Source of the DNA: a virus
Taxonomy: Duplodnaviria; Caudoviricetes
DNA: 64,000 nt
IMG/VR virus record: IMGVR_UViG_3300028591_000141
Location: 1 to 64,000 of that record
Reading direction: 5' to 3' (one strand)
Each line of letters begins with the position of its first letter. Positions within the stretch are counted from its first letter, which is position 1. Under the pieces are notes generated by a model, which worked only from the letters and a program-made list of their open reading frames with translations, made no database searches and was not told the DNA's origin. A program made the translations under genes and the position numbers. This document shows positions 42,712-64,000 of the stretch, piece by piece.

Positions 42712-43089
42712 TTAATTACCACCTTTCTGATTAGTTGTGAATTGGACAAAACAATCAAGGGCGTCAACGTCATCCATGGACAGCGTCAGCCCGGGAATAG
42801 AGATCGGAATCTGAACCGGTTTGACCTTCAGATCCACATCAATGTCACTGAGTTCTTTCAACCTCTGCCGGAACGCAGCAGCTGCTTCCTGACTCTCGAA
42901 CGTGATGGATCCATCAGCATTGACTTTTGCGCTGTCGGTCATCTTTTTTTCTTCATCGAGTTGGAAGTCCCACTGAGGCTGCAGCGCCTGCTTGATCTTG
43001 AACAGATCAAAGGCCAGCTTGATCGGAAGATCTTGCTGGCCAAGTTTTGTTAATGCTTTGTATGCTTTTATTACCTTGAATTGTTTCAT
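42712..43089 (-). CDS. Hypothetical tail-module protein
   Basis: RBS AAGGAGG; 'LPIKLAFDL'. Confidence 0.6.
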   Translation of the reverse strand: MKQFKVIKAYKALTKLGQQDLPIKLAFDLFKIKQALQPQWDFQLDEEKKMTDSAKVNADGSITFESQEAAAAFRQRLKELSDIDVDLKVKPVQIPISIPGLTLSMDDVDALDCFVQFTTNQKGGN

Positions 43090-43098
43090 GCGTCCTCC

Positions 43099-43395
43099 TT
43101 ATTCACCGAGTACATCTATCGGGACGGTCAGCGCGATACGAAGATTCCCGCTTTCCGCAAGCACAATAGCCTCGATCAGGTCGGTATATCCGCGGTATTC
43201 CTTACTCACTTCACCGCCAATCAAGCCCTGGATAAAGTTGGTTTCGTCAGTGTTGGAAAAGACCGGAATAATCTCCATCATGCTCTTTCCGACAAATTCG
43301 ATATAAAGAACTGATGTCACACCGATCACCGTCGCGCCCATGAACCGGATAGGAAACTCTTTCCCGGTTGCTGTTCTGACAGACAATTCGTCCAC
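43099..43395 (-). CDS. Hypothetical tail-module protein
   Basis: RBS AAAGGAGG. Confidence 0.55.
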   Translation of the reverse strand: MDELSVRTATGKEFPIRFMGATVIGVTSVLYIEFVGKSMMEIIPVFSNTDETNFIQGLIGGEVSKEYRGYTDLIEAIVLAESGNLRIALTVPIDVLGE

Positions 43396-43409
43396 GGTAT
43401 CCCTCCTTT

Positions 43410-46841: not shown

Positions 46842-46853
46842 CGCTCCACCTCC

Positions 46854-47573
46854 TTAGATTTCCCACCACCTGGGCGTGATTGCAACAGTGCTGACCGCTC
46901 CGCTGAACCCGATCGAATTGGATCCGGGCGCCAGCGTGGCGAATTCGCTTGTGCTGCTTGAAACAATCGCGTTTTTGTTGTTCCCGCTGCCGTCGTAACA
47001 GTTCATTGTTTCGCAGTCGATATAAACCGGAACGGTCGTGTCGCTGATGGTGAACACCGTGCCGTTGACCGTTACCGTGCCCTCAACGCCTCCGCCGGTA
47101 ACAAGCAGCAACGGTCTGGAAGCGAACGCGGTCGGGTTTGTGATCGTGCCAGGGATGATAAACGTCTCCGATGTTTCTCCGCTTTTCAGAAACCGCTGCG
47201 GTTTGCAGTTGAAAGTGATCTTTGCCCGCCCGACGCGGGTCATGATGTTGTCGATGTCAACTGGTCCGACAAAGTGCGCCAGCCGGAAGTGATCCGGGTC
47301 GAAATCATCCTCCAGGCGCCGGTATCCTGTCGGTCCGTAGAGCCATGCCGCTACACTTGAAAAAGCGCCGGGGACGGCGTGCTCTGATCCGTCACCGGCG
47401 AATATTTCATAATCCTGATCGACATTGTCCCATGCGTCCTGCGGGCGGATGATATCCCCGCTCCGGCCTGGCACCGAGTAGACGTCAACCTTTCTTTTCG
47501 GTTTTACGTAGAAGGGAGCGGCCTCGACATAGATCCCGAGGCTGTCCGATGTGACATTGTTCCATGTGATCAT
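46854..47573 (-). CDS. Distal tail protein (Dit)
   Basis: 'SVPGRSGD...FNCKPQRF...LAPGSNSI...TPRWWEI'. Confidence 0.85.
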   Translation of the reverse strand: MITWNNVTSDSLGIYVEAAPFYVKPKRKVDVYSVPGRSGDIIRPQDAWDNVDQDYEIFAGDGSEHAVPGAFSSVAAWLYGPTGYRRLEDDFDPDHFRLAHFVGPVDIDNIMTRVGRAKITFNCKPQRFLKSGETSETFIIPGTITNPTAFASRPLLLVTGGGVEGTVTVNGTVFTISDTTVPVYIDCETMNCYDGSGNNKNAIVSSSTSEFATLAPGSNSIGFSGAVSTVAITPRWWEI

Positions 47574-50338: not shown

Positions 50339-50753
50339 GTCTCTCCCTCCGTTTCTCTATCCATTTCCGCATCTCATCCGGCGGCATTGCGGATGCCTTT
50401 CCGCCGAACGTTTTCGACTTCCGTTTCGTGTCGCCGGGACGCGGGTACGGCGTCGGCTTCTTCGGCCGTCCGCCGTGCGCCTTTATAAGGATTGCCTGCA
50501 GACTCGCCAGATAGTCGATGACGTCCGCAAGCATTAAGTTCGTTTTGTAGGTTGTCGCCCATGCGGAGATCTCCGGATCTATTTCCCGCACGGTCGCCGA
50601 AGCTGGATCCATATACCTCAAAAAAGAGCCGAGCGCACTCCACGAAAGAGTGCGCCCGACTGATTCAAGGCCGCGGCCTGTTGTCATTAACAAGTCACGT
50701 TCAACCGCCTCGCGGTGTTCGCTTACGAATCCGCTGAGGCCGAGGATTCCCCC
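50331..50753 (-). CDS. Tail assembly chaperone -1 frame (gpGT-like)
   Basis: Slippery G GGG GAA at 50753-50747; -1 frame open into ORF 50331-50693. Confidence 0.75.
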   Translation of the reverse strand, partial: GGILGLSGFVSEHREAVERDLLMTTGRGLESVGRTLSWSALGSFLRYMDPASATVREIDPEISAWATTYKTNLMLADVIDYLASLQAILIKAHGGRPKKPTPYPRPGDTKRKSKTFGGKASAMPPDEMRKWIEKRRERHG

Positions 50754-51031
50754 AGCTTCGCTTTCCCTTCGCTCAGGGCGTAGGAGTTGAAAATGGAGAA
50801 GAACTCCATATCACCGATGTCGGCTTCCTTCAGGTCCGGCGCGTACTTCAGGACGAAATCCTTGATCAGTTTACCGCGCTTTTCCAGATCATCAGCCTGG
50901 TCGATCTTCCGCATCATTTCCGCCTCAGCAAAAGACAGCTGAGACAGAGCCGGCAGGGTATAGACCTTATCGGTGCTGCCTTCCAGCGCAAACGTAAAGC
51001 CGCGCTGCTTTCTGACGATATAGTCAGCCAT
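50723..51031 (-). CDS. Tail assembly chaperone (gpG-like)
   Basis: Position after tail tube; ends 'KLGESSASADS'. Confidence 0.75.
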   Translation of the reverse strand: MADYIVRKQRGFTFALEGSTDKVYTLPALSQLSFAEAEMMRKIDQADDLEKRGKLIKDFVLKYAPDLKEADIGDMEFFSIFNSYALSEGKAKLGESSASADS

Positions 51032-51053
51032 TGGGAAATCCTCCTTTAATTAA

Positions 51054-51608
51054 TCAGCCGCTGGTCTTCTGGCCGTCATCCTTGACGAACTTCCAGTCTC
51101 CCTCGATGGTGGGGTTCCAGGTGATCGCCCCTGTAGGATTGAAGGCCACGTCGCCGACTTCCGTCACGGTGCAGTCAGCGCTGCAGAGCATGAATTCGTC
51201 GTCGCCATCCTTGCCCAGGAAGACGAAAGCATAATGGTTGCTGGTCGGTCCCTGGCTCATGTCCACGTTAAGCAGCTTGCCATGGGTGGTGGTCGCGGCG
51301 GTTTCCGTCACGCGATCGCCGAAAATTGCGGTCAAGCTGGCCTTTGTGGTGGAGATCAGGGAGACATTCACGGTGCCCTTCTCGGTCATGACCTGGCGCC
51401 GGGCCGTGCGGCTCCAGTCGCGGATCACGTCCACGCTGCCGAAGGGAGTCAGGGTCGGGCCATCCTCAGAGATGTAGCCGCCCTCAACAAAGGCAGCGTC
51501 CAGCGTGTCACCGGGGAAAGTGGGCATCACCAGCTCATCATCGACCGGCGCGTAATAGAACATGCCGGACACATTGCCGAGACCGATATTGACGTCATTG
51601 GTCGCCAT
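51054..51608 (-). CDS. Major tail (tube) protein
   Basis: 'GYISEDGPTL...IRDW...VTEVGDV'. Confidence 0.85.
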   Translation of the reverse strand: MATNDVNIGLGNVSGMFYYAPVDDELVMPTFPGDTLDAAFVEGGYISEDGPTLTPFGSVDVIRDWSRTARRQVMTEKGTVNVSLISTTKASLTAIFGDRVTETAATTTHGKLLNVDMSQGPTSNHYAFVFLGKDGDDEFMLCSADCTVTEVGDVAFNPTGAITWNPTIEGDWKFVKDDGQKTSG

Positions 51609-51625
51609 AGTGTTTTACCTCCGTA

Positions 51626-52009
51626 TCAAATAGTTGTGTTTTCCAGATGCGCCGTCACGCTTAAACGCGCCGAGCACATCGCGATATCCGGCCGCACAGG
51701 GTCAACGCCCCAGCTGCCGGACGATGTAACCTGAATATGCCTGACCGGCGTCGTGCTCTCCCTGGCGATCTTCCGCAGGATGCCGACCGCCTTGTTAAGC
51801 AGGTCGACCGCCTGGGGCTCACGCAGGGCGCGGCTGTCCAGGACAATTTCAGTGCTGTCGATGGTGTCACGGTCAGAACCTCCGACCTTGGTCACCAGGA
51901 TGCAGGGCATTGTAAAGTCAGCCGGCAGCGGACGGCAGTACGCAGTCATATACGTGTCCAGGATCTTCTGGACTTCATACTCGATATCAACCGATGTCTG
52001 AATCTGCAT
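51626..52009 (-). CDS. Tail terminator
   Basis: 'LVTKVGG'; synteny. Confidence 0.65.
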   Translation of the reverse strand: MQIQTSVDIEYEVQKILDTYMTAYCRPLPADFTMPCILVTKVGGSDRDTIDSTEIVLDSRALREPQAVDLLNKAVGILRKIARESTTPVRHIQVTSSGSWGVDPVRPDIAMCSARLSVTAHLENTTI

Positions 52010-52293
52010 TACATCACCGCCCCGCTTAGTGCTTTGTCCTCTGACTCAGCTATCATGCTCGCCCTGTCGGTCGTTCCCACGAATCCGACATAACGATTGC
52101 TTCGATATGCGTGAGTCAGCTTTACGTTAGACTGGAATCCTTCTCCGCCGCGCGCGTTCGCCGCGTTCGCCCTTGAACAGATTGTCTCTGTTTCGGACAG
52201 AATCACGTCATGAACGCCGGCACCGGTCAGGATCTGCTCAAACCCTGCTGAAATGAATTCGATTTCAACCCGCTTCGCCATCAGCCGTCCCAC
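52009..52293 (-). CDS. Neck/tail completion protein
   Basis: Synteny and size. Confidence 0.55.
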   Translation of the reverse strand: MGRLMAKRVEIEFISAGFEQILTGAGVHDVILSETETICSRANAANARGGEGFQSNVKLTHAYRSNRYVGFVGTTDRASMIAESEDKALSGAVM

Positions 52294-52622
52294 CTCTCGA
52301 GGTTGAGAACAATGCTCGACACAAGCCCGGTCGGAGAATCCCAGACCCGGGGCTCGCCGTTGATGGTATAGGTGTTTCCGTTGTACCTGATCCGGTCGCC
52401 GGCGAGAACATCCGACCCGGGCGGCATATAACAGGTGTATCCGTCAGTGATGCCCTGGATCCTGCCGTCCTGAGACAGAGAAGTCCCGGCGGGCTGCATG
52501 GAGCAGCCGCTTATATCCAGTTCGTCCGGATTGTCCCAATCAGGGTAAACCGTGCCACGTTCGACGATCGTGCCGGCTCGGATCCGCGTCACTGTGTCGT
52601 TCACCCAGGAAGGAAGCGCCAT
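52281..52622 (-). CDS. Head-closure protein
   Basis: 'PDW...GCSMQP...DVLAGDRI...YTINGEP'. Confidence 0.7.
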   Translation of the reverse strand: MALPSWVNDTVTRIRAGTIVERGTVYPDWDNPDELDISGCSMQPAGTSLSQDGRIQGITDGYTCYMPPGSDVLAGDRIRYNGNTYTINGEPRVWDSPTGLVSSIVLNLERWDG

Positions 52623-53248
52623 CAGAACACCCCCCTCACCTTGTAGGGTTCGAGGGTCTCAAGGTCAGTAGACTGCAGCGCACCAGCTCCGCCTCCATTC
52701 GCCCAGCTTGCACTGTAAGAGATGGAAACACCGCCCGCGCTTTCGCTTGCCACGCCGTTCGGCGACACAAGCGCCCTGGTGGCCCGTCCGGAGATGATTT
52801 CCTTAATGGATCCCATCATCGTGTCCGGGACGCCTGCCGTATAAGCGACAGTGATCTCCGTTTTCCGGGAAACCGGCGCGACATCGAACAGATGGACGAT
52901 TCCGTTCTGCTCAAACGTGAAATCCGTCCAGGCTTCGCCGTCAATCGTTACGGTCGAAACGCCTGTGATAAACGCCGCCGGCAGCTGCACCAGGAAGTCG
53001 TTATTAACCCGCTTGATCCTTCCGTTCCCGTAGAGCAGGCGCTCAGAGAACTCGCAGGCCTGCGGAGGAGATACATGCCAGCCGCAATGATTACGTACGC
53101 CCATGGAGGCCGCTGAGATGCTGGCGGGAATCCGAACGTCACCGGCGAACTTATTCGCGGTCATCGTGTTGAAATCCGCCTGGGACAGCATATCCGCCAG
53201 GGCATCCGCATCCGTGATGGTGTACCCCCAGTTCGTTACAAGGCTCAT
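52622..53248 (-). CDS. Head-tail connector
   Basis: 'VRNHCGWH...YTAG...SESAGGVSISY...LEPYK'. Confidence 0.75.
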   Translation of the reverse strand: MSLVTNWGYTITDADALADMLSQADFNTMTANKFAGDVRIPASISAASMGVRNHCGWHVSPPQACEFSERLLYGNGRIKRVNNDFLVQLPAAFITGVSTVTIDGEAWTDFTFEQNGIVHLFDVAPVSRKTEITVAYTAGVPDTMMGSIKEIISGRATRALVSPNGVASESAGGVSISYSASWANGGGAGALQSTDLETLEPYKVRGVF

Positions 53249-53430
53249 TTTGTCGCCGCCTTCCTGGATTTGTTCGCAGGCTTAACAGCCTTTACAGCAG
53301 GATTTTCGACCTTCGCCTTGGGCGGTTCCACCGCCTTCGCCGCGGGCCGCTTAAACTCGACAGCGCCTGCCGGCTGCTGGCCTTCTTCGTACTCGAGCTT
53401 CATGCCGTTGTACAGGTAAGTCTTCAGCAT
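53245..53430 (-). CDS. Small basic head-associated protein
   Basis: Follows capsid gene; 'PANKSRK' tail. Confidence 0.55.
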   Translation of the reverse strand: MLKTYLYNGMKLEYEEGQQPAGAVEFKRPAAKAVEPPKAKVENPAVKAVKPANKSRKAATK

Positions 53431-53496
53431 CTGGTTTCACCGCCCTTTCATGGTAAGATGGGGAGCCGCCCAGACTGGACGGCCCCCGGTTATTCA

Positions 53497-54675
53497 TCAG
53501 GCAGAAACGGCAGCGGACAGGACGCAGATACCGGCCGGGTACTTCGGCACGAACGCCATGCGCTCTTCAGCGATGACGGTCACGCGGTTGTACAGAGCGT
53601 CGTCTTCGTTCTGCTCGTAGACCTTAACGGTCGTGCCGCCCTTGCGAGCGATCTGGATGGACTGCTTGCCGGCGCCGACAATGACCTTGCCCTGGGTGAC
53701 ATTCGCGTTCTCGTAGATCGGGAGGCCCCAGATGCGGGCGGGCTGAGAATACTCGCCGTTGCCATAGGCATTCTGGAAGTAGCCGCCGCCGAGATACTGC
53801 TGATTGTTATCCTTGGCAGTCAGCAGCGCGTACAGATCCGCGGGGTTCATCAGGACGAAGTCAGCCGCGAAGGGCGTATTCTGCTTGATCAGCCTGGCAG
53901 CGTACAGGATACCTTCGGCCAGGTTCGCAGCGTCGCCGGTGTTGCCGCCGTCAGTGTAGTCGGCTGTCTGCTTGCCGGACAGGCTCAGCAGGGAGGACAC
54001 GATGCTCGCATTTTCCACGGCGTCCAGTTCGTAGAGAAGGTCATTCTCAACGACGGAGGTCAGGAAGGGAGCATCCTGCAGGATCTCATCGGATTCCTTC
54101 ACAAAGCCGGCGATCTTGCCCAGAGCCACAGTGTGAGGGGTGAAACCGGTGGACAGCTGCGGCTTCTTGGCGTTTTCACTCACAGCCGCGGGAGCGCCGG
54201 CGTCGGGCTTAACCCACGCGTCACGCGTGAAGTAGGTCAGGGCGTTGCCGGAAATGTTCAGGGCGCCGAACAGGTCAGCGATTTTCGGCCGGCGGGCCAT
54301 CTTGACGGGGTTCTTGTCGATATCAGCCAGCTGCACGCCGGTGATGGTGTCGGTATAGACGCGATCCTTGAAATTGATCTCAGCGGACGCGCTCCAGCCT
54401 TTGCTGTTCTTGTCAATGGCCTTGGCCTGCTCGATCAGGCTCTGCATGGGATCATTCATGTGTTTTTCCTCACTTTCTTCGGATTTGGATCCGATCCTTC
54501 CGAGAAGCTCGTTCGCTTTCTCGGCTTTTTCGATAGCGCCGGTCAGCTCATCGATGGCCGTCGCAAGTTCTTCGCCGGACTTGATGTCTTCCTCATTCCC
54601 GGCTTCGATACCGTCCTTCAGGGCGGCCAGGGCGGCTTTTTTCTCCGCCAGCTGCTCTTTAAGGCTCATAGTCAT
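53497..54675 (-). CDS. Major capsid protein, HK97 family
   Basis: Coiled-coil delta domain; 'VSENAKKP', 'SDEILQD', 'MNPAD', 'IWGLPI', 'AEER'. Confidence 0.93.
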   Translation of the reverse strand: MTMSLKEQLAEKKAALAALKDGIEAGNEEDIKSGEELATAIDELTGAIEKAEKANELLGRIGSKSEESEEKHMNDPMQSLIEQAKAIDKNSKGWSASAEINFKDRVYTDTITGVQLADIDKNPVKMARRPKIADLFGALNISGNALTYFTRDAWVKPDAGAPAAVSENAKKPQLSTGFTPHTVALGKIAGFVKESDEILQDAPFLTSVVENDLLYELDAVENASIVSSLLSLSGKQTADYTDGGNTGDAANLAEGILYAARLIKQNTPFAADFVLMNPADLYALLTAKDNNQQYLGGGYFQNAYGNGEYSQPARIWGLPIYENANVTQGKVIVGAGKQSIQIARKGGTTVKVYEQNEDDALYNRVTVIAEERMAFVPKYPAGICVLSAAVSA

Positions 54676-55364
54676 ACCTCCATAGTCTTGATCCGTTCCA
54701 GGAGCGCATCCTTCCGGGAATTGAGCACCTCGGGCTCCTCCGGGACTGCCGCCTCGTTGGCCTTTGACGCTTCCTCTTCCGTTTCGGACTCTTCCGGTTC
54801 GGGTTCTGTATCGTCAAGCTGACCAAGAACATCCCTGATCAGCGTGATCGCCTGCTCCAGCTTCTCAGCGTCAGCCTTGCTGTTCCGCCTGCCGGACTTG
54901 ATCTCAGTGACTTCCGCGCGGGGATTCGCCGGAATCGGCACGATGGAAACCTCGAACAGTTCCAGTTCGCGCAGCTCGTTCGCCTTTGTTCCGTCCTCCA
55001 GCTCCACCTGGGCGGCCTTTTTGACCTCATAGGCGAAGCTGAACTGGTAAACACACCCGGACAGGACCAGCGCCCGCTTTTCCTGGGCGAGAGGCGTATC
55101 AAAAAAGCTCGCTGTCATCAGCGGGCCTTTTTCGGTATCCTCAATGTTGTCCACTGTCCCGATGATCTGATCGAGATCGTGGTTCCAGCAGAGCGGGAAC
55201 GGGTGACCGGATTCCTTCCGAGCCTTCAGCGTTTCAGTAAACGCCCCTGGCGCGATCACATCGCCGTAACTGTCCGGGATCCTGTCGTATGTGCTGAAAT
55301 ATCCGGAGATCGTGCCGGCGTCCCCTGCTTTGACTTCTCCGTAACTCTTGAAAAGTCTGTCCAT
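54672..55364 (-). CDS. HK97-family prohead protease
   Basis: 'DSYGDVIAPGAF...CWNHD...FSFAY...FEVSIVPIPANP'. Confidence 0.92.
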   Translation of the reverse strand: MDRLFKSYGEVKAGDAGTISGYFSTYDRIPDSYGDVIAPGAFTETLKARKESGHPFPLCWNHDLDQIIGTVDNIEDTEKGPLMTASFFDTPLAQEKRALVLSGCVYQFSFAYEVKKAAQVELEDGTKANELRELELFEVSIVPIPANPRAEVTEIKSGRRNSKADAEKLEQAITLIRDVLGQLDDTEPEPEESETEEEASKANEAAVPEEPEVLNSRKDALLERIKTMEV

Positions 55365-55365
55365 G

Positions 55366-57327
55366 TTATCCCTCCTGTATTACAATTTCGGTCGAACAGT
55401 TGCAGTTGCAGGTCCCATCAGGCCCGAGGATGTCATCCCCCGGCCAGTCAGCGCCGTTTGAGAATCTGTCATCAATTCCGACCATCTCGCCGTCCATCAT
55501 CGCGTGCTCCGGGCGCGGATTGTCGCCGGTTACCCAAACCTTAGAAATTGTTTTCCTGAAGCCCTGGCGCTCAGACTGATGGCAAGCCTCCTGCGTGGCC
55601 CAGCTGGCCACCGCCGTCGCGACGGAGCGCCCGAGCATACTGGACTCCGTTTCTTCGCGTTTCTTCATGGCATCCGCCGGAGACTCACTGTCCTCATCAT
55701 CCGGATCGTAATTGTCCTGGACTTCCTGCAGCTTCTTTTTCGTCTTGTTGTTTGTCGCCTTTGCCCGTCCTTCAGCCATCGCCCGGATGAAAGCCACCGT
55801 GGCGTCCATATAGTAGTTGACGCCCAGGATGCCGGCAGTCTCTTCACCGTGCGCTCTGTTCACCACGTTCATGACCGGCTCAAGGTCATCCGCCAGTTCT
55901 TTGTTCCAGCGTTTTTCGTCGAACCAGTCCGGGTTGCCGGCGCCCAGTTTCGGCAGGATGCTGTTCCCCTGGCGCTTGAAAAACTTTTTCAGCACGTCAG
56001 CGATCAGTTCGTCTTCTTCCTTTGTGGAGCGTCCTTTGACACGGATCTCATAAGATTTGCACTCAGGGCACCCGCAAGCGGCAGAACGAATCGGCACCGG
56101 TTCTTCCGGGGTGGATTCCGTTGCCATTTCGTTTCCCGTGCTAAGGTTCAGCGGAACGATGATGTCGTCACCGCCATCGATCGGAGGCAGATTGTTGTCC
56201 GCTCTGGCCTCGTTCCGCGTCATCCACGGCCCCCCAACGGCTGCCTGCAGGATCGCGGCGCGTTCCTCGAAGGATCCCTTCAGTTTTTCCGTCAGGTCAA
56301 ACTCGACATACAGATCAGGATCCGCGCCGATCATCGGCAGCAAGAAAGAGTTAATCCGCTGCTGGATCATCTGCAGATCCGGCCCGAGGCACTCCGCATA
56401 CAGCGCGCGGCTGTTATCCTTGGCGCTCGCGTAGGTCTGTGTGTCCGTATGCCACACAAGGGAAGGATTGATCCTGTATGCAGCTGCCACGGCCTCCCTG
56501 GACAGCTTGATCGATTCAGCCCACTGCTGCTCTTTGAACGACGTTGAGAACGGTTTGATCTCCATGCCGTCCTCGAGCAGCGGAATTGATCCGGCTTTGC
56601 TTCCACCGGCGCCCCAGGCTTCACGGAACGCGGTTATCCAGCGCTTTTTCGTTTCCTCATCCCACGGCTGCACATCTTTCGGCCTGATAATCTGTGCATT
56701 CAGCCGCCCGGATGATTTCCACAGTTCCTTCCGGAACCGCCCAGCCTGGATCTGTTCTTCCAGCGTCTGCCGGAGTGCGGAAACCGGACTGACATACCCG
56801 CCCGGATTGCCAGGAGAATACGTGTTAAACCGCACGAACTCACTCGACGGGATCTCGATCTGGTTCCCGGACTGCGTCCGCACGGTGATGCTCTCGGGGC
56901 CGTATGCGTTTACCTTGTTCGTCTGTGTGACCCATTCCGTCGGAACGATCCGCAGCTGATACCCTGAGTCGCTTTCAGCGTCCGGAAGGACCCACACATA
57001 CACGCAACCAAACACGAAGTACTCCGTCGCGATCGCCCGGATGAATTCATACTCCGTCTGATCGCTGTTCGGGCGCCATAGTAAAAGCGCGGCCGTGCTT
57101 GTCCGGTCGCGCTCCCTGTCAGTTTCACCTTTTCGCCTGTAGACCTTCAGCGGCAGCTGAGCGATACTGTTCGCCAGGAAATTGACAACCGCTGACAGGT
57201 TGTCCTGGCTGTTGTAAAGCTGCCGCGCCGTATAATTCAAGACATTCGACGGCGCGTCAGGCCCCAGATATACCTGGTAGACATTCGGCTTAAACAATGT
57301 CCGCCAGCGTTCCACAATTCCAGGCAT
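55366..57327 (-). CDS. HK97-family portal fused to gpF/gp7-like minor head domain
   Basis: 'IAQLPLKVY...WMTRNEARA..NLPPIDGGD' followed by 'KVWVT...RPEH...FSNG..WPGD...NCNC'. Confidence 0.88.
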   Translation of the reverse strand: MPGIVERWRTLFKPNVYQVYLGPDAPSNVLNYTARQLYNSQDNLSAVVNFLANSIAQLPLKVYRRKGETDRERDRTSTAALLLWRPNSDQTEYEFIRAIATEYFVFGCVYVWVLPDAESDSGYQLRIVPTEWVTQTNKVNAYGPESITVRTQSGNQIEIPSSEFVRFNTYSPGNPGGYVSPVSALRQTLEEQIQAGRFRKELWKSSGRLNAQIIRPKDVQPWDEETKKRWITAFREAWGAGGSKAGSIPLLEDGMEIKPFSTSFKEQQWAESIKLSREAVAAAYRINPSLVWHTDTQTYASAKDNSRALYAECLGPDLQMIQQRINSFLLPMIGADPDLYVEFDLTEKLKGSFEERAAILQAAVGGPWMTRNEARADNNLPPIDGGDDIIVPLNLSTGNEMATESTPEEPVPIRSAACGCPECKSYEIRVKGRSTKEEDELIADVLKKFFKRQGNSILPKLGAGNPDWFDEKRWNKELADDLEPVMNVVNRAHGEETAGILGVNYYMDATVAFIRAMAEGRAKATNNKTKKKLQEVQDNYDPDDEDSESPADAMKKREETESSMLGRSVATAVASWATQEACHQSERQGFRKTISKVWVTGDNPRPEHAMMDGEMVGIDDRFSNGADWPGDDILGPDGTCNCNCSTEIVIQEG

Positions 57328-58409
57328 TATCTCGCCTCCACTTCCTCGACCAGCTCGGCCAGCCTGTAACCCGTCGGGTTATCTCCAAGCAGCTGCTGCA
57401 GCCGTTCATAGTTTACAATCCACTCTTCGCCCTCCGGAATAATCCGGTGCAGTTTCGCATCATAAATATGATGCTTGGCATAATTTTCAGTCGCGCGGAC
57501 ACGGTATCGCTTTCTCATGTGTTCCGCGTAATCTGATTTATCATCTGTCAGCAGTTTCGCCCACTTCGTCGGCCTTGGCGTCATTCGGAAGTTGAACGTG
57601 CCGGCCTTCTCGTAGATCTCGCGGACAGGGACGTTTTTCATGTCCAGCGGCAGCACAAAACCAACAGGATCCTGATCCCGCATTGACGGTATATCTGTCA
57701 CGATAACCGGCACTCCCAGACAAAGCGCTTCATAAACCGTGTATGCATACCCCTCATAGTCTGACAGCTGGACAAGGTAATCAGCATCCGCGATGAAGTC
57801 TGTGATATCATAGCGCGGTTCACGTTTAATAACGTTCGGGTTTTTGAACGGTATCGGCTGATTACTGAACACATCCCACCGGAACGGGATTCCCTCATCA
57901 TCCAGCATTCGAGCGAGCTTTTCCATCCGGCCCGCGCCCTTTTCCGGCGCTAACCGCGTTGCGCTGATCAGGCGGAGGACTCTCCTGGGTTCCTCAACAA
58001 TGATCGGATTATACAAAACATCCGTATGATGCCCGGTCAGTTTCTCAAACTTCGCCGCCGCCGACGGGCTGACAGCATAGTAATGTGTGCCTTCAGGCAT
58101 ATGCGGATCATCCAGCTTTGCCAGGTCATAATCCTGGTGGACAATGTAGTAATATTCATCCGCGTGAAAATACTCCGGGACCCCTGGGCACCAATTCATG
58201 AAAGCCCGCCTGCACTTGACTTCCTGATGATCCCATTTCACACACCGGACAAATTGTTTCAACCTCTCCAGCTGATGCTCGTCCGCTTCCCGGTACACAA
58301 TGACGAAATCCCTGGCAGAAAACATCCTGGCCAACGTATAAGCAAACGTTTCCACGCCGCCGATCCTGGTCAGGTGCCAGCAGAACATCGCATTACTGCA
58401 CTCGATCAT
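57327..58409 (-). CDS. GT-B fold (GT4-like) glycosyltransferase between terL and portal
   Basis: 'IGGVET', 'RL.PEKG', 'ADYLVQLSDYEGYAYTVYEALCLGVPVIVTD'. Confidence 0.85.
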   Translation of the reverse strand: MIECSNAMFCWHLTRIGGVETFAYTLARMFSARDFVIVYREADEHQLERLKQFVRCVKWDHQEVKCRRAFMNWCPGVPEYFHADEYYYIVHQDYDLAKLDDPHMPEGTHYYAVSPSAAAKFEKLTGHHTDVLYNPIIVEEPRRVLRLISATRLAPEKGAGRMEKLARMLDDEGIPFRWDVFSNQPIPFKNPNVIKREPRYDITDFIADADYLVQLSDYEGYAYTVYEALCLGVPVIVTDIPSMRDQDPVGFVLPLDMKNVPVREIYEKAGTFNFRMTPRPTKWAKLLTDDKSDYAEHMRKRYRVRATENYAKHHIYDAKLHRIIPEGEEWIVNYERLQQLLGDNPTGYRLAELVEEVEAR

Positions 58410-59917
58410 ACAAAAATAACCTCCGCGCCTCTTGCATAAACGCTTTCGTATAGTTTCTTCTGCGGGGCTTCAGCCTGTTTTGTCAGTCCTGAGAACGCCA
58501 TGATGCAGGCGAACAGAGGAGCGATATCGTCCGGGCTTTTCAGCCGGTCCGGCAGCTGGACGCCTCCGCCCATCTGCTTCAGCTGCATCGTGTGCCCGGG
58601 CGTATCCATCACCGGCTGCGGCAGGTGATAGATCCGTTTCCCGTCACGATCCGGAAGGCAGGCACAAACACCGTCATAAAAGCGGCCCCATCCGTTCGAC
58701 AGGTCCGTCCCTTCAATAGCGATCCGCTCCACGCCCGTGATCGTGCAGATCTGTTCGGCCAGTCCGCCGACCGGTGCGCCGCGGGACTGGAAAGCCAGCT
58801 TCATTTTCCCCTTCAGCGCACGCTGCCGGAACCAGTCAATCGCCCACTCCGTGCCGATCCTCCGGGCTACAAGCTCGACGTGCCAGTTGCCATCCTCGCG
58901 GAGGCCGCAAGCGCCGATCGACGTCCAGCGCCGGTCCTGTGACAGGTCGATTCCGTAGAAAACCGGCTCTTCCGGCGGGATGAATGACTCCGGATCCATG
59001 CCGGCATCCCACGCGCCATCTGGAAACGGCGGCGGAAGGATTGTTTCGACCATCTGACACATACATTCGGACCGGAATTTCGCTTCCGGAAAGGTCGCAC
59101 GGTTGGCAAGCAGCGCCCGCTCCGTCAGCAGGCCATACCCCATGGCGGGATTCGCCTGGGCCAGCGCGTTCAGGTCGTCCGTCGCAGCGCCTTCCGGCGC
59201 GGACCACTCAAACAGGCCGAGCGTGTTCGTGTCGACGTCGCCGCCGAGGTTCGCCTGCTGGCCGAGCGCCTGGGACCGCAGCTGCCGGAGGACGATGCTG
59301 TCCGGATCGCCAGCATTGCTGAAGCAGACCACAAGGCCATTCGGCTTCGCATTCGTGGACGCCGCCGCTGCGGACCATGTTTCCCAGTCACGGTGCTCGC
59401 GGATCTCGTCCAGCATGACAAAGTCGTTACTGTCACCGCGGCCGGCCCGGCGGGTGGGTGCGCCGACTTTATAGCGCCGGTTCTCCGTCAGCTCCAGGCT
59501 CTTCTTTCCGTTCGTCCGGCTGATCCGCGTGATGTCAGCAGACAACCCCGGGCACTCCTCCTGGTCGCGGATCACGGCCTCCCAGACTTCCTCAGCCTTT
59601 TCGAGGGAGAGGGACGTCCCGAAGATGTTCTCGACCATCATGACGTTAAGGAAGAAAGACGCCAGCACTTCAGAAAGCACTGTCTTACCGTTCTGCCGGG
59701 AGATCAGGAACATGATCGTCCGGAAGCGGAACTTCCAGTCAGCGCCCAGGGTGCCGGTGATCTCCAGCGCGTGGATCAGCGCCCACTCCTGCCACGGGTA
59801 CAAGGTCTTTTTCAGAACCGTCTTCGCGTACTCAATGCAGGCAAACCCGAGCGACGTTTCTTCCGTCAGCTCGCGGAGGGGCTTTGTGTATAATCGCGGC
59901 TCTGTCTTCCCATTCAT
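58406..59917 (-). CDS. terL: Terminase large subunit
   Basis: 'LYPWQ', 'ISRQNGKT', 'VMLDEIRE', 'SNAG', 'ANPAMG'. Confidence 0.92.
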   Translation of the reverse strand: MNGKTEPRLYTKPLRELTEETSLGFACIEYAKTVLKKTLYPWQEWALIHALEITGTLGADWKFRFRTIMFLISRQNGKTVLSEVLASFFLNVMMVENIFGTSLSLEKAEEVWEAVIRDQEECPGLSADITRISRTNGKKSLELTENRRYKVGAPTRRAGRGDSNDFVMLDEIREHRDWETWSAAAASTNAKPNGLVVCFSNAGDPDSIVLRQLRSQALGQQANLGGDVDTNTLGLFEWSAPEGAATDDLNALAQANPAMGYGLLTERALLANRATFPEAKFRSECMCQMVETILPPPFPDGAWDAGMDPESFIPPEEPVFYGIDLSQDRRWTSIGACGLREDGNWHVELVARRIGTEWAIDWFRQRALKGKMKLAFQSRGAPVGGLAEQICTITGVERIAIEGTDLSNGWGRFYDGVCACLPDRDGKRIYHLPQPVMDTPGHTMQLKQMGGGVQLPDRLKSPDDIAPLFACIMAFSGLTKQAEAPQKKLYESVYARGAEVIFV

Positions 59918-60192
59918 CTTGCTACCTTGAACCTCGCCCTCAGATCGCTGAGGTTCGTGACCTCTGTGTCCTCGGCGCCCGTCATGCTCTTCAGGGCAGC
60001 CAGCGTCTTCGTGTAGCAGGTCATCAGCTTCTCATAAGCCGGGAAGAACGGGTTCTCTCTGATTCCGCTCTGGCCTCCGCCGTGATCGTACTCGACTGTC
60101 ATCGGCTCGTCAGCCAGGCGCTCGCCCTCTGTCAGGATCTTGGCAGCCATAAGCTCCAGTTGATCCCGCAACAGCTTTTTCTCCTTTTCCAT
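59914..60192 (-). CDS. terS: Terminase small subunit (P27-like)
   Basis: 'YDHGGGQSGIRENP...YEKL...Y'. Confidence 0.8.
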   Translation of the reverse strand: MEKEKKLLRDQLELMAAKILTEGERLADEPMTVEYDHGGGQSGIRENPFFPAYEKLMTCYTKTLAALKSMTGAEDTEVTNLSDLRARFKVAR

Positions 60193-60282
60193 GGTTTACA
60201 CTCCTTTTGAGGGCCCGGAGGGGGAAAAGACTGCCGTCGGTTGGTCTCTTCCGTCAACAAAAGCGCCAAGATTTCTTGGCCC

Positions 60283-60570
60283 CTACCATATCCGACTACG
60301 CATTCCTATGGCGTTTTCGCCATTCGTCCCGTCCCCGCGAGCCCGGTTGCACTTCATGTGCGATGCTAAAATGTTGTTCAGATCCAGTTCCAGTTCAGGC
60401 GCTTTTGCTACCGGTACCAGGTGATCAGGCTCCCAGGAATCCGGAGCTGAAGATGGATCCAGGTGATAATTGATTTCCTGCCCGCAGATATGACAAACAG
60501 CCCGGGCCTTCCGATCACGGTCCCAAGCAAGCCGCCGAACCTGTGGCCACCTTCCTGATCTGCTACTCAA
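60283..60570 (-). CDS. HNH endonuclease (packaging-associated)
   Basis: 'CHICG...DHLVP...NILASHMKCN'; TTG start assumed. Confidence 0.85.
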   Translation of the reverse strand: MSSRSGRWPQVRRLAWDRDRKARAVCHICGQEINYHLDPSSAPDSWEPDHLVPVAKAPELELDLNNILASHMKCNRARGDGTNGENAIGMRSRIW

Positions 60571-60684
60571 TAGCGCCGCCCTCCCGCGCACGTTGTGGCG
60601 CTGTGCGCCCCTCTGCCGGAAGGAGCGAAACCGGCAGCACATCCAAGGAAACATGAATAAACATGAAGAAACATGAAGATACGA

Positions 60685-60759
60685 AAAAGCAGCCGGTTGT
60701 CTTCGGCTGCTTTTCCACGCTACTATTATACTGATAAGTTTACTGAAATTCACTGAAAT
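60685..60759 (-). promoter_or_regulatory. Late promoter with activator repeats, followed by terminator
   Basis: ATTTCAGT twice (60742-60759) upstream of TATAAT (60725-60730); hairpin AAAAGCAGCCG...CGGCTGCTTTT at 60685-60714. Confidence 0.6.
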
Positions 60760-60763
60760 AAAG

Positions 60764-61177
60764 TTATTTACGCACCTTTTCCGGATACTTCCTCGCCAGC
60801 TGATCCTCCGCCCTGCTCAGGTAGTAATAGACAGATCTGTCCGTCCGGCAGATTGCCTCTGCGATGTCTTCCGGGCTGTAGCACTCAATATAGCGGAGCC
60901 GCATCACCGCCCGGTCGTCCGGGTTGTCCAGGTTGTCGATCAGCGGATCCAGCTCTCGCTGCATTTGTTCCAGTTCTCCCAACGTTTCCCGGTACGCCGC
61001 TTTGACTTCATCGATCTTGATAGCGCCTTCTGCGACCTGATCATGCCCGGTTCCACCGTGCGGCATCCCTGTCAGCACCGACGTGATCTTCGTCGCCCTG
61101 GCCATTTCCTTTTCGACCTTCCACCGCGCCTTGATCGTGTAGCGCATCAGCTGGCGCATCCGGTAAAGGTTTACCAT
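60764..61177 (-). CDS. Late transcriptional activator (ArpU/RinA-like)
   Basis: 'LTGMPHG...RAVMRLRYI...EDIAEAI' sigma-r4-like HTH. Confidence 0.8.
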   Translation of the reverse strand: MVNLYRMRQLMRYTIKARWKVEKEMARATKITSVLTGMPHGGTGHDQVAEGAIKIDEVKAAYRETLGELEQMQRELDPLIDNLDNPDDRAVMRLRYIECYSPEDIAEAICRTDRSVYYYLSRAEDQLARKYPEKVRK

Positions 61178-61290
61178 GTAATCACCTCCGATTCATCCAA
61201 TAGCGTATAGCATACTCAAGCAAAATGTCAGGAAAGCGGCTATTCCAACCGCGATCCAGAAAAAATCGTCCTCCTCAGGCCATAGGCGTT

Positions 61291-61638
61291 TCATTCCTTC
61301 ACCTTCTTTTCCCCGTCAGCACAGAACCAATCCGGCGTAACAACAGTCCCGTTTCGTCCGCAGACATTTTCCTGTTCGGATGGTATCCTATTGTCTGCAA
61401 AATACCAGTGTTTGCAATCCTTGCAGCGGACAACCGGAACAGCATCAATGGTTGGGGAAATGTCTTCATCGAGGAAATAATCAATCGTGTCCCCAATATC
61501 ACAGGCACGGCACGGAGCTTCGCCTATTTCGTAGCAAAAGCGGATTTTCCCGTTCTTCATTCCCTTTCGTCTGTCACATTCTTTGCATCTAAACTCTCGC
61601 AAATATTTGATCGTTGCATCAGCATCAATCAACCTCAT
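61291..61638 (-). CDS. Modular small protein (MRLIDAD...DWFCADG), copy 2
   Basis: Near identical to 27748-28098. Confidence 0.7.
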   Translation of the reverse strand: MRLIDADATIKYLREFRCKECDRRKGMKNGKIRFCYEIGEAPCRACDIGDTIDYFLDEDISPTIDAVPVVRCKDCKHWYFADNRIPSEQENVCGRNGTVVTPDWFCADGEKKVKE

Positions 61639-61750
61639 TTCACTTCACCAACCTTTACTTTGTCCAGACTTGATGCCCTTGCACGTTCCTTTTGCAATAT
61701 CAAGCGCAAGCCTTAATTGCCGTATTTCAGCTTCTTGCTCTTTCAGCATG
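61308..61750. repeat. 443-bp direct repeat, copy 2
   Basis: Matches 27768-28210. Confidence 0.95.
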
Positions 61751-61872
61751 TCAAGGGCATCAGCATGAAGCAGAAAAATACACTTTGAAGAGTTGATGTC
61801 ATATTGGCATCCATCGCATGAACCACCTTCTTTACAATTCTCCAACCCTTTGATAACCTTCTCCCTGTCCAT
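61645..61872 (-). CDS. Modular small protein (MDREKVIKGL...LKEQE)
   Basis: Shared motifs with neighbours. Confidence 0.65.
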   Translation of the reverse strand: MDREKVIKGLENCKEGGSCDGCQYDINSSKCIFLLHADALDMLKEQEAEIRQLRLALDIAKGTCKGIKSGQSKGW

Positions 61873-61890
61873 TCACTTCACCGCCACTTC

Positions 61891-62046
61891 TCAATTCCAA
61901 TCGTCACAACTGTCATTGTCTTCCACAATATCCCCGTTTCGTAAAACACAACAAAGGTATGTATCGTGATATTGGTCTTCATCGACAAACGCATTTGCAC
62001 AGGTAAGGCAACAATGTTCTACATCGTTATGATTTGTTATCTTCAT
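61891..62046 (-). CDS. 51-aa Cys-rich protein (not in ORF track)
   Basis: MKITNHNDVEHCCLTC...SCDDWN. Confidence 0.45.
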   Translation of the reverse strand: MKITNHNDVEHCCLTCANAFVDEDQYHDTYLCCVLRNGDIVEDNDSCDDWN

Positions 62047-62093
62047 ACCCAAAAATACTCTCCTATTTTTTCGTTATTCGCTCCTTTATCGAA

Positions 62094-62237
62094 CTATCTT
62101 GTATTCTCAACAAGCGTTTTTTTTCCGCATTTACGGCACACCATAATTCCCCTTGAAAAACTGCCATAAAGTAGCGGACTTGCAGGAACATAATCATGCA
62201 AACATATAAATCGTCTGAAAATCGTTCGTAAATCCAT
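62094..62237 (-). CDS. 47-aa zinc-binding protein (not in ORF track)
   Basis: RBS AAGGAG; 'FICLHDY...CRKCGK'. Confidence 0.45.
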   Translation of the reverse strand: MDLRTIFRRFICLHDYVPASPLLYGSFSRGIMVCRKCGKKTLVENTR

Positions 62238-62261
62238 GTCACAATCCACTCCTTTTCTGAA

Positions 62262-62552
62262 TCAATCCCACTTCACAGGTCTGCCACAATCATCACAAAA
62301 CTTTTGCTTGTAATACAATTCTGTTTTGCACTCACACAGATAATTATCGAAACTCGCTCGTTCGCTGTGGTTCATGCGTTTCGGTTTTACAGGTTCCTGC
62401 TCTTTCAGCATGGCAAGGGCATCACGACACATTTTTCTCAAGCAATCAAACCCAAATTTATCTTCTATATACGGGCATTCTCCGCATATAAAAAAATCTT
62501 CGTCCTTTTCGCAACACTCCAACCCTTTGATAACCTTCTCCCTGTCAATCAT
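62262..62552 (-). CDS. Modular small protein (DREKVIKGL...LKEQE...FCxxCG)
   Basis: Shared motifs. Confidence 0.65.
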   Translation of the reverse strand: MIDREKVIKGLECCEKDEDFFICGECPYIEDKFGFDCLRKMCRDALAMLKEQEPVKPKRMNHSERASFDNYLCECKTELYYKQKFCDDCGRPVKWD

Positions 62553-62781
62553 CGTCCGTTCTCCTTTTCCCGTCTGCGCAGAACCAATCAGCATTTGGTT
62601 TGAATTTCAAGCAATGTTTTTCTCTCATGCTTTCGCAATAACCATCGTCCATGAAACCATAATGGTCAATCAAATACTTGCATTCCTTGCACCGGACTAA
62701 TTCTTTTGTTTCAAACGTTTTCGGACTACCATCCCATGCACGTTCTCCCGGTTCGTCAATGTTGACGATCATCGTTTTCAT
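62545..62781 (-). CDS. Modular small protein (...VRCKECK...DWFCADG)
   Basis: Shared motifs; start MKTMIV after GGTGAAGT. Confidence 0.65.
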   Translation of the reverse strand: MKTMIVNIDEPGERAWDGSPKTFETKELVRCKECKYLIDHYGFMDDGYCESMREKHCLKFKPNADWFCADGKRRTDDD

Positions 62782-62788
62782 TTTAACT

Positions 62789-63112
62789 TCACCGACCTTC
62801 CCATAGAACAGGCTTTCCGCATTGCCTACAAAACTTTGCATATTCTTTTGCTTTGTCTATTCCATCATAAATGTGATACATATATGCTCCACACGAACCG
62901 CAACACCAAACAAAAATACCTTTTTCATCTTGCTTGAATGATGGCTCAACCGCTTCTTGCTCTTTCAGCAGAGCAAAGATTTCTTCTGCTTTTGTTAGGC
63001 TTATAATCACTTCACTGAAAGATTCAGAGATTACTCTATTCCGCATACACGTTTCAAGATATTCAGCAAGGTTTTCAGCAACCTTTCTCTTCTCTGGAGC
63101 ATAATCATACAT
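62789..63112 (-). CDS. Modular small protein (...LKEQE...FCRQCG)
   Basis: Shared motifs. Confidence 0.65.
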   Translation of the reverse strand: MYDYAPEKRKVAENLAEYLETCMRNRVISESFSEVIISLTKAEEIFALLKEQEAVEPSFKQDEKGIFVWCCGSCGAYMYHIYDGIDKAKEYAKFCRQCGKPVLWEGR

Positions 63113-63127
63113 CCTACTTCACCTACC

Positions 63128-63361
63128 TTACGTATTGCATGGACAATCGTTCGTCCTAAAAGAACACTGCCCATTACATAAAGTGTTATACAACTTGCAA
63201 TACGGAACCGTTGCGCCCATATTCTGTTCCCATTCGACCATGGGACAATTCTTTTGAAGCTCTATTACTTTATTGCGAAACGCTAATGTTTCTGGATTAA
63301 ATGCATTGACTATTGCAGAATTTTGTCCATACAATACAGATAAAATGTCGTTGTTATTCAT
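63128..63361 (-). CDS. Cys-rich hypothetical protein
   Basis: GGTGAAGT leader. Confidence 0.55.
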   Translation of the reverse strand: MNNNDILSVLYGQNSAIVNAFNPETLAFRNKVIELQKNCPMVEWEQNMGATVPYCKLYNTLCNGQCSFRTNDCPCNT

Positions 63362-63376
63362 CCCACTTCACCGCCT

Positions 63377-63769
63377 TTAAGTTTCTTCACATGGTTCAAG
63401 TTTTGCACCGCAATGCGGACAATACTGATAGAAAATTCCTGCATCGTTGTACCTTGTTGGTTCTCCGCATACAGAACACCACCAGAATAAATCCGCATAT
63501 ACTCCCGGTCTTGAATAATGCCGTTCCCATTTCCCCTGTTTCGCTTCCTGCTCTTTCAGCAGTTTCTCAATCTGTTCATTCTTTTTGCGAATTAACTCAA
63601 CAGCATTCGTCAGTTCTGTTCCAAGATCGTCCTGCTCTTTCAGCAGGGCAAGGGCATCGTTAATCGTCTGCAGGAAATTCCGTGCCTGTTCAAATCCTAC
63701 ACGCCCCGCAATGAAACCGCCAATGTCATTCAGACCTTTGATAACCTTCTCCCTGTCTGGCATGTTCAA
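63377..63769 (-). CDS. Modular small protein (DREKVIKGL...LKEQ twice...YCPHCGAK)
   Basis: Shared motifs. Confidence 0.65.
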   Translation of the reverse strand: MNMPDREKVIKGLNDIGGFIAGRVGFEQARNFLQTINDALALLKEQDDLGTELTNAVELIRKKNEQIEKLLKEQEAKQGKWERHYSRPGVYADLFWWCSVCGEPTRYNDAGIFYQYCPHCGAKLEPCEET

Positions 63770-63981
63770 TCATTCCTTTCCACCGCAAGATGCGACTCAA
63801 AGTAGTTCAGCACCCGTCGCATCAGTTCCCCGCTTGGCTGGACATCTCCGTACACATACCGCCTGATCGTGCGCTCACACATACCAAGTTCTTCCGCAAG
63901 CATTTTCTGCGAGATACCGTATTCTTTCATGACTGACCGCAGCCACTCACCGAATTCGTTTGCTCCATATTTACAATGCAT
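63766..63981 (-). CDS. XRE-family HTH protein
   Basis: 'ISQKMLAEELGMCERTIRRY..G...PS'. Confidence 0.8.
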   Translation of the reverse strand: MHCKYGANEFGEWLRSVMKEYGISQKMLAEELGMCERTIRRYVYGDVQPSGELMRRVLNYFESHLAVERND

Positions 63982-64000
63982 CTTTTACCTCCGTACTACC

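Follow-up and report, generated by a model that had tools for sequence, protein, structure and literature searches.

Short joints conserved as DNA probably mediate the exchange of protein modules in small-gene arrays of ruminant-gut phages

Here, we examine an array of small genes at positions 61291-63769, on the minus strand, of a 64,000-nucleotide (nt) stretch of phage DNA and propose that related phages swap its protein modules at four short DNA-conserved joints, in frame, by crossover inside the joints; we give this reading a probability of about 0.7. The stretch, hereafter the window, is the first 64 kb of the 98,779-nt IMG/VR record IMGVR_UViG_3300028591_000141, which derives from a sheep gut sample, and the array lies in unit B, one of three phage-like units (A, B and C) strung along that record. 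Conservation of the joints at the DNA level, clustering of breakpoints at them, recombinants in register and one recent exchange between co-resident prophage units were observed directly. From these observations we infer that the exchange is homologous recombination, what enzyme would perform it, and that the conservation of the joints is kept up by or for exchange.

An earlier note, made by a model from the letters alone, had reported repeated motifs in this region and suggested that they act as recombination joints between shuffled zinc-finger modules. The motif copies lie where it placed them and far exceed chance: the 13-mer TGCTCTTTCAGCA (LKEQ) has six exact copies, at 28196, 61736, 62398, 62958, 63549 and 63633 (0.11 in shuffled sequence), and the 23-mer CCTTTGATAACCTTCTCCCTGTC (DREKVIKG) has three, at 61847, 62524 and 63735 (0 in shuffles), besides a degenerate copy at 27727-27773 that is 81% identical (repeat family D3). 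The joints and the ribosome-binding sites of the array are the following.

61849-61869, minus strand: joint 1, located at the start of genes (DREKVIK codons); repeated at 62526-62546 and 63737-63757 and, in degenerate form, at 27729-27749 and 28321-28341
61735-61761, minus strand: joint 2, where helix 2 ends (DAxx(L/M)LKEQ codons; GATGCCCTTGCCCTGCTGAAAGAGCAGGAA is the DNA of the LLKEQ block)
62397-62411, 62957-62971, 63548-63562, 63632-63646 and 28195-28209, minus strand: LLKEQ copies of joint 2 elsewhere
61312-61332, minus strand: joint 3, closing the K module (DWFCADG codons); also present at 62569-62589 and 27772-27792
61411-61431, minus strand: joint 4, opening the K module (VRCKDCK codons); also present at 62677-62697 and 27871-27891
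61642-61649, minus strand: Shine-Dalgarno sequence GGTGAAGT; further copies at 61875-61882, 62786-62793, 63116-63123, 63365-63372 and 28102-28109

Joint 4 was newly found and is absent from the motifs first listed; loose contig ends lie at 61411 and 62697. One of those motifs, the 'leader' ACTTCACC, has eight copies against 1.46 expected, at the six places given in the last line and at 4601 and 43208. It is the reverse complement of GGTGAAGT and turned out to be an ordinary ribosome-binding site, located 3-5 nt before each ATG; it shares bases with the preceding gene's stop (xGG TGA AGT) or, in relatives, with that gene's VKW codons.

Synonymous positions in the joints are conserved beyond what the proteins require, as the earlier note had maintained. 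IMG/VR was scanned for any DNA encoding DREKVIKG (83 stretches), DWFCADGE (100) or DALALLKEQ (60), whatever the codons. Synonymous variants do occur, and the exact 23-mer represents 24 of 84 unique copies; each joint position nevertheless strongly favours one codon, often one that is rare elsewhere in the same small genes, with a deviation from background of p from 6e-04 to 2e-42. The favoured codons and their shares, compared with the rest of the same genes, are these.

LLKEQ, last Leu: CTG in 89/105 (85%) versus 22% elsewhere, p=2e-42
LLKEQ, Lys: AAA in 100/105 (95%) versus 58%
LLKEQ, Glu: GAG in 83/101 (82%) versus 30%
DREKVIKG, Ile: ATC, 69% versus 26%
DREKVIKG, Gly: GGG, 60% versus 18%
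DREKVIKG, Arg: AGG, 57% versus 20%
DWFCADGE, Phe: TTC, 88% versus 37%
DWFCADGE, Ala: GCT, 66% versus 21%
VRCKDC, Val: GTC, 54% versus 15%
VRCKDC, Arg: CGG, 59% versus 20%

The preference is specific to the position: CTT or CTC encodes the Leu of DAL in 54/59 and CTG the next two Leu, while DREKVIKG has AAG for its first Lys (79%) and AAA for its second (76%), which rules out global codon bias as the cause. Conserved residues that flank the joints (L9, E10, CPY and all Cys) are encoded at or near background. Outside the joint, L9 is CTT 28, TTG 25, TTA 14 and CTG 13 times; E10 is GAA 36 and GAG 30 times, a mild GAG excess (p=0.01); and in CPY, Cys is TGT 30 and TGC 27, Pro CCA 27, CCG 17 and CCT 13, and Tyr TAT 46 and TAC 11 times, the last a mild excess over a self-estimated background of 0.6 (p=0.001). 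Close relatives do not drive the codon result, since only 28 of 5,460 pairs of N-module bodies exceed the low-similarity threshold, 13 of them near-identical. LLKEQ and VRCKDC lie in mid-gene, and their conservation therefore needs a cause other than translation signals; possibly only lineages with intact joint DNA keep exchanging, or the DNA or RNA of these blocks has a function of its own.

Breakpoints were located by all-against-all blastn of 219 related viral loci and the record, as unique internal ends (n=345) of matches of at least 100 nt and at least 90% identity, and were counted at a joint when within 12 nt of the motif; these thresholds of identity, length and distance were our own choice. 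Under a null in which the same ends were shifted locally by 40-600 nt, 22.4 +/- 4.4 ends are expected at the three motifs of the earlier note together, and 90/345 were found. The excess holds for each joint, with 46 ends at LLKEQ (9.8 expected), 25 at FCADG (6.3), 19 at DREKVI (6.3) and 18 at VRCKDC (4.6), that is 3-5 times the null, and all four joints together take 108/345 (31%). Gene borders that carry no motif have 72 ends against 37.5 expected, a 1.9-fold excess. The ratios at the joints persist under stricter cut-offs, and extension of BLAST alignments into a conserved motif would, by our own estimate, inflate the counts by about 15% at most. Breakpoints are thus not random relative to the motifs, nor is the conservation of the motifs confined to the protein level.

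The ends also resolve where the parent changes. Matches on the 5' side stop at +12 to +23 of LLKEQ (23/30) and those on the 3' side start at -6 to +5 (18/26), so that both classes include LLKEQ and the switch falls inside the motif. Among the 13 pairs with near-identical N bodies, the C-terminal parts are unrelated in seven and the same in only three. Two explicit triads complete this picture: locus L014 combines the N part of L013 with the C part of L004, and L059 likewise combines L019 and L051, both changing parent inside GATGCC..CTGCTGAAAGAGCAGGAAGC without an insertion or deletion. The earlier proposal that the motifs are recombination joints is thereby supported by breakpoint clustering and by recombinants alike.

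One alternative, which we regard as unlikely, is that illegitimate recombination strikes at random, that selection keeps the products broken at domain borders, and that the joint DNA is conserved for unrelated causes such as ribosome-binding sites, translation initiation or an RNA hairpin at LLKEQ. Phage mosaicism is usually attributed to illegitimate recombination (PMC3029335), and the joints do match structural borders (the first helix, the end of helix 2 and the module ends). The codons of the FCADG tail overlap the ribosome-binding site of the next gene, and DREKVIKG directly follows the ATG. CTGCTGAAAGAGCAG, the core of LLKEQ, reads as a perfect inverted repeat of 5 bp around GAAAG (site 61735-61749 and the other LLKEQ sites) and could fold into a 5-bp stem with a 5-nt loop; its covariation is weak, TTG with CAA and T4 with A12 being slightly above expectation in a comparison confounded by base composition. 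However, the crossovers are in register, free of insertions and deletions, and fall inside identical stretches of 15-25 nt, not in the variable linker that follows. Loop positions of the putative hairpin are synonymously conserved too, with AAA for Lys in 95%, and LLKEQ is far from any ribosome-binding site.

A recent event of this kind is preserved in the record itself, as a repeat shared by units A and B whose boundaries, as the earlier note had stated, coincide with two of the motifs.

27768-28222, minus strand: repeat copy 1, in unit A
61308-61762, minus strand: repeat copy 2, in unit B, comprising all of gene A1 up to DWFCADG and the tail half of gene A2 from MLKEQ
62530-62589, minus strand: 60-nt gene-border cassette with DWFCADG-x-RTDD*, ribosome-binding site, ATG and xDRxKVI

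Positions 27768-28210 and 61308-61750 agree over 443 nt with two mismatches, and the repeat extends to 28222/61762 (455 nt, four mismatches, 99% identical) before identity falls abruptly to background. It ends at DWFCADG codons on one side and DA(I/L)xMLKEQ codons on the other. As the copies lie in two different prophage units, the repeat indicates a recent exchange between co-resident prophages with both ends in joints. The cassette, 90% identical to 27733-27792 (family D7), is a second mosaic piece and crosses the 455-nt repeat.

An independent assembly was available as Logan contigs (contigs, not raw reads) of the source run and of three further gut runs from sheep or goats; inference on habitat is limited to these four runs, runs X4-X19 with small word shares being excluded. 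Both contexts of the 455-nt repeat are present in the assembly of the source run, and in run X1 a contig passes from 61762 into the sequence that follows 28222 in unit A. Contigs end or branch at the joints, namely at 61309-61335, 61411, 61603-61620, 61721-61762, 61854-61885, 62383-62416, 62527-62556, 62697, 63543-63568, 63630 and 63728-63757, with several different continuations per branch point and a summed depth there that is 3-4 times higher. Candidate in-situ 'skips' between motif copies in these contigs were rejected: their sides measure 20-32 nt and come from other genes with two motifs, and they are no evidence of rearrangement.

The branching of Logan unitigs exactly at the motifs, in data that are all metagenome assemblies, could also be taken to mean that no real exchange occurs and that the mosaics are assembly artefacts of mixed phages sharing k-mers, or mark ends of purifying selection; the A1 family is strongly conserved, and some FCADG ends could mark the end of constraint. 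We consider this very unlikely. The joints, at 15-30 nt, are shorter than the reads. Larger assembler k values exceed the joint length. The members of the triads come from different metagenome records, the repeat contexts recur in the independent assembly, and the differing domain architectures are complete open reading frames. Relaxed constraint, for its part, does not resemble the drop from >90% to random identity within a few bases that is seen at the breaks.

It is likewise highly improbable that a dedicated site-specific or nuclease-targeted system, akin to an integron, a shufflon or a homing endonuclease, moves cassettes at the motifs. The repeated short motifs do share one orientation, and nuclease genes are near: a GIY-YIG-like gene (65178-65834) lies 1.4 kb away on the upstream side of the array, and an HNH gene 0.5 kb away on its downstream side. 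Nuclease genes have been reported at exchange borders in other phages (PMC10055350). Yet no recombinase gene adjoins the arrays, the integrase genes (37661-39244, 40882-42186 and 77157-78314) lying at prophage ends, and the HNH gene stands beside the terminase genes as the usual packaging partner. Neither an inverted core nor a spacer architecture is present in the motifs. In 2.18 Mb there are 136 copies of the core 12-mer CTGAAAGAGCAG (about 0.3 expected by our own estimate), and 132 of them are in frame as LKEQ, which binds the motif to a coding context and argues against a free, frame-independent DNA site. No reliable deletion or inversion joints were found in the Logan contigs over the array, where the candidates had sides under 30 nt and contigs cannot show rare forms. 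Targeted hypermutation by a diversity-generating retroelement between conserved flanks would also place hypervariable segments between conserved blocks, as is observed here; it is effectively refuted by the absence of a reverse transcriptase (PF00078) from the whole 98.8-kb record and by variable parts whose differences concern length and fold class and not just single base positions.

We thus favour in-frame exchange by homologous recombination, which could proceed as follows. Across the phage population, DNA conservation covers the first and last 15-30 nt of each module as well as the 45-60-nt gene borders made up of the upstream gene's tail, the ribosome-binding site, the ATG and DREKVIKG. 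Host RecA or phage annealing proteins may pair these short joints between otherwise unrelated genes, and crossovers within them would swap whole modules in frame. The earlier note had pointed to a Sak4-like recombinase, for which unit A has a gene.

33026-33697, minus strand: Sak4-like RecA-fold ATPase gene, unit A; PF13479 AAA_24 (42.5 bits, cut-off 27, E 3.1e-12), Walker A GESGSGKT

A control search with AAA_24 also matched generic ATPases in 14/14 control genomes. Judged from its sequence, the protein is a candidate recombinase only, encoded in the other prophage unit than the flagged array and with no apparent link to the joints. Unit B encodes an exonuclease VIII-like protein, SSB and a Holliday-junction resolvase; no annealing protein was recognised in it, and its proteins at 69275-69904 and 69918-70592 had no Pfam match. 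These two genes (209 and 224 codons) lie between SSB and a pair of SpoU-like methylase and exonuclease VIII-like genes, and one of them could be an unrecognised annealing protein.

Several points weigh against this reading or narrow it. Passive homologous recombination at conserved sequences fits the evidence as well as a purpose-built system does. Part of the synonymous conservation has ordinary causes, as the codons after DWFCADG (E/K-R) double as ribosome-binding site for the gene that follows and DREKVIKG, right after the ATG, is part of the translation-initiation region, and the LLKEQ palindrome may have a role as RNA or DNA. Local gene conversion was considered and rejected, LLKEQ copies within a locus being no more alike than those of different loci; DWFCADG copies are only slightly more alike within a locus than between loci (2.0 versus 2.8 mismatches). 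The data compared are all short-read metagenome assemblies or metagenome-assembled genomes (MAGs), although some identifiers of viral contigs may belong to isolate genomes, and rare chimeric joins at shared k-mers may be present among them. Finally, the loci were picked for carrying a motif, and the local-shift null takes account of position but not of all consequences of that selection.

The array itself consists of nine or ten tightly packed or overlapping genes of 51-128 codons, all on the minus strand. Translation and alignment indicate that their proteins are drawn from a small vocabulary of modules.

N module: xDREKVIKGLE, a variable loop often with four Cys and CPY, then DALxLLKEQ; a helical hairpin
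Z module: predicted C-terminal zinc ribbon ending in CG(R/K)xVxW(E/D)
K module: Cys4, VRCKDCK ... C ... DWFCADG
R module: MRLIDADA..., situated ahead of K

In descending coordinates, the genes are the following.

63377-63763, minus strand: A9 (128 amino acids), Cys-free N module (MPDREKVIKG...DALALLKEQ), followed by a helical insert with a second LLKEQ at its end and by a zinc ribbon
63128-63361, minus strand: A8 (77 amino acids), Cys-rich, with neither joint motif nor family match
62789-63112, minus strand: A7 (107 amino acids), unrelated helical N part, LLKEQ joint, zinc ribbon ending ..VLWEGR*
62545-62781, minus strand: A6 (78 amino acids), K module VRCKECK...DWFCADG, tail KRRTDDD* overlapping the start of A5
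62262-62552, minus strand: A5 (96 amino acids), N module (MIDREKVIKGLECC..CPY..DALAMLKEQ), linker EPVKP, zinc ribbon ..CGRPVKWD*
62094-62249, minus strand (alternative frame 62063-62242): A4, a possible gene (51 amino acids), uncertain, without motif and known from the list of open reading frames only
61891-62052, minus strand: A3 (53 amino acids), Cys-rich, without family match
61645-61872, minus strand: A2 (75 amino acids), N module (MDREKVIKGLENC..DALDMLKEQ) and helical tail
61291-61638, minus strand: A1 (115 amino acids), RLIDADA module and K module (VRCKDCK...DWFCADG), variable tail EKKVKE*

The sequence between the motifs is unrelated as DNA, as the earlier note had said; at the protein level this description does not stand, because the proteins belong to the same few module families. 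Its zinc-finger label fails for the N modules of 63377-63763 and 28105-28344, which have zero cysteines. The predicted zinc ribbon of A9 matches PF09297 Zn_ribbon_NUD with 27.1 bits (cut-off 24.8), and the zinc-ribbon profile scores of A5 and A7 are 15-16 bits, under the cut-off. The helical insert of A9 between its two LLKEQ copies would, to go by its sequence, be the product expected from an out-of-register crossover at the joint. The final codons of A7 double as the ribosome-binding site of the next gene, and A6 is 35% identical to A1 in an alignment. A5 has 67 homologues and falls into phrog_10714, a PHROG of unknown function. Its AlphaFold2 model (predicted local distance difference test, pLDDT, 85.6) has a helix at 4-16, a Cys loop, a helix at 37-50 and a short beta ribbon with four Cys; DREKVIKGLE forms helix 1, DALAMLKEQ the end of helix 2, and the linker and small ribbon follow. 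The placement of the motifs in this model suggests that the joints are the structural edges of modules.

Different phages join a like N module to Z, K or other C-terminal parts. When 105 distinct N modules from related phages were sorted by the part after LLKEQ, a zinc ribbon followed in 46, a K module fused in frame in 13, a ..RRxNNGAFD tail in three, a short tail of 20 residues or fewer in six and something else in 36; one ran off its locus. The free shuffling envisaged by the earlier note does not extend to A1, whose family counts more than 2,200 members in the databases, nearly all viral. The identity of A1 to its best matches is 63-97% (mostly 70-77%) over 97% of its length, and only the tail after DWFCADG varies. 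A1 obtained no Pfam, NCBIfam or PHROG assignment, and its AlphaFold2 model was too poor (pLDDT 56.9) for a structure search; the family is a large, uncharacterised phage family.

The units of the record and the neighbours of the array are listed below.

About 1-39.2 kb: unit A, with major head, portal, large terminase and primase/helicase genes and a serine integrase gene (37661-39244)
About 40.9-78.3 kb: unit B, with tyrosine integrase genes (40882-42186 and 77157-78314) and structural genes (42260-60753)
From about 80.5 kb (80551-98779): unit C, with tail genes
63766-63981, minus strand: helix-turn-helix (Cro/CI-type) regulator gene immediately upstream of the array; PF01381 HTH_3 (E 4.7e-09, 36.6 bits)
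60764-61177, minus strand: late-gene activator-like gene (sigma-70 region 4 / DUF1492) just downstream of the array, with the HNH gene, which adjoins the terminase genes, next
27507-28344 (about 27.5-28.4 kb), minus strand: smaller array of like kind in unit A, with three genes
27507-27758, minus strand: unit-A array gene, MPDRKKVIEW.., Cys-rich
27748-28098, minus strand: unit-A array gene, twin of A1
28105-28344, minus strand: unit-A array gene, Cys-free N module and a tail as in A2

A2 and 28105-28344 have identical tail halves. The array is an operon-like row between early or replication genes and the late-gene activator, in a temperate phage of a ruminant-gut Clostridia bacterium. A scan of 60200-64000 for promoters and terminators gave no signal beyond shuffle expectation, which fits a single transcription unit. 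Units A, B and C each have structural or integrase genes of their own and may be tandem prophages or co-resident phages joined by the assembly. Past the end of the window, the early region contains the GIY-YIG homing-endonuclease-like gene and, at 67982-68332, a Lar-like restriction-alleviation gene.

Searches of the array proteins against Pfam, PHROGs, NCBIfam and PADLOC returned only weak zinc-ribbon matches and PHROGs of unknown function. The A5 model had nothing below E 0.5 in a Foldseek search of the PDB, and the ESM Atlas gave only viral hypothetical clusters, with Lar_restr_allev and Tad8 at 0.79, under the trust level. A tblastn search with A1 and A5 of 50,697 GenBank phage records (cultured phages) found no match. 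A scan of genome contigs found 42 matches, about 13 of which are expected by chance; the remainder are ruminant-gut Clostridia MAGs, with no cultured isolate among them. The array proteins may be accessory host-interaction factors, and the mix-and-match pattern suggests an arms-race function, while the 'effector library' of the earlier note is conjecture. In a bolder form of the idea, the joints would be kept as recombination signals, drifted lineages leaving the exchange pool, and the arrays would be a population-wide combinatorial library of small host-targeting (e.g., anti-defence) proteins that parallels antigenic-variation cassettes, possibly with a recombinase or nuclease preferring the palindromic CTGCTGAAAGAGCAG core; we find this form doubtful.

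The nearest precedent is the lambdoid boundary sequence, an idea that reportedly goes back to the modular theory of Susskind and Botstein and to the HK620/HK97 comparisons of Clark and Juhala. As in lambdoid phages, stretches conserved as DNA at module borders would act as substrates of homologous recombination between unrelated neighbours, and the 45-60-nt gene-border cassettes found here (such as 62530-62589) are of this type. Unlike lambdoid boundaries, three of the four joints are inside coding sequence at protein-module borders, as in-frame peptides with conserved synonymous sites, and they occur in uncultured phages of ruminant-gut Clostridia with 31% of ends at joints. Short conserved boundary sequences as recombination sites are an old concept, and are usually not found at most mosaic borders (PMC3029335).

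A second precedent comes from T-even tail-fibre adhesin genes, with their glycine-rich motifs and the His boxes of gp37 (Tetart et al. 1998, cited in PMC3157838); for gp38, crossovers in small conserved motifs were obtained experimentally (Trojet et al. 2011, PMC3157838). In both cases small conserved intragenic motifs separate variable segments, which crossovers in the motifs swap. The adhesins, however, are virion host-range proteins whose exchange was shown by experiment, whereas the present genes are tiny, non-structural, Cys-rich and known from sequence alone; and where adhesins exchange loops, the exchange here involves whole folded modules and extends to separate genes (fusion and fission). 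Short, diverged homology is tolerated by phage annealing proteins such as the Rad52-like, Red-beta and Sak4 proteins (PMC3945230, PMC2327257, PMC5928155, PMC5499656). Exchange of a temperate phage with a co-resident prophage via short, diverged homologies resembles such relaxed recombination, and the record has Sak4-like, exonuclease, SSB and resolvase genes; the published cases, in contrast, are gene-scale mosaics of Escherichia coli and Staphylococcus aureus phages, and here the enzymes are known from their genes alone. Integron cassettes and shufflons are likewise arrays of small units bounded by repeated short sequences, but the present arrays differ in having no adjacent recombinase, in sites that are coding and frame-bound, and in the absence of an inverted-repeat site architecture.

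The principle is thus known from lambdoid boundaries and T-even gp38, and the arrays are an unusually clean sub-genic case in an uncharacterised gene family of ruminant-gut phages. The family offers hundreds of natural replicates with short, defined, intragenic joints whose synonymous sites are conserved, unlike neighbouring conserved residues, and this makes the role of conserved boundaries testable. Large protein-module families of ruminant-gut phages that lack annotation are defined as well, and the A1 family among them has no Pfam entry. Denser arrays of these modules are present on other viral contigs, with four DWFCADGE copies on L091 and three on L130, and L016, L050 and L077 have two DREKVIKG copies each; these five contigs are good material for a grammar of module order.

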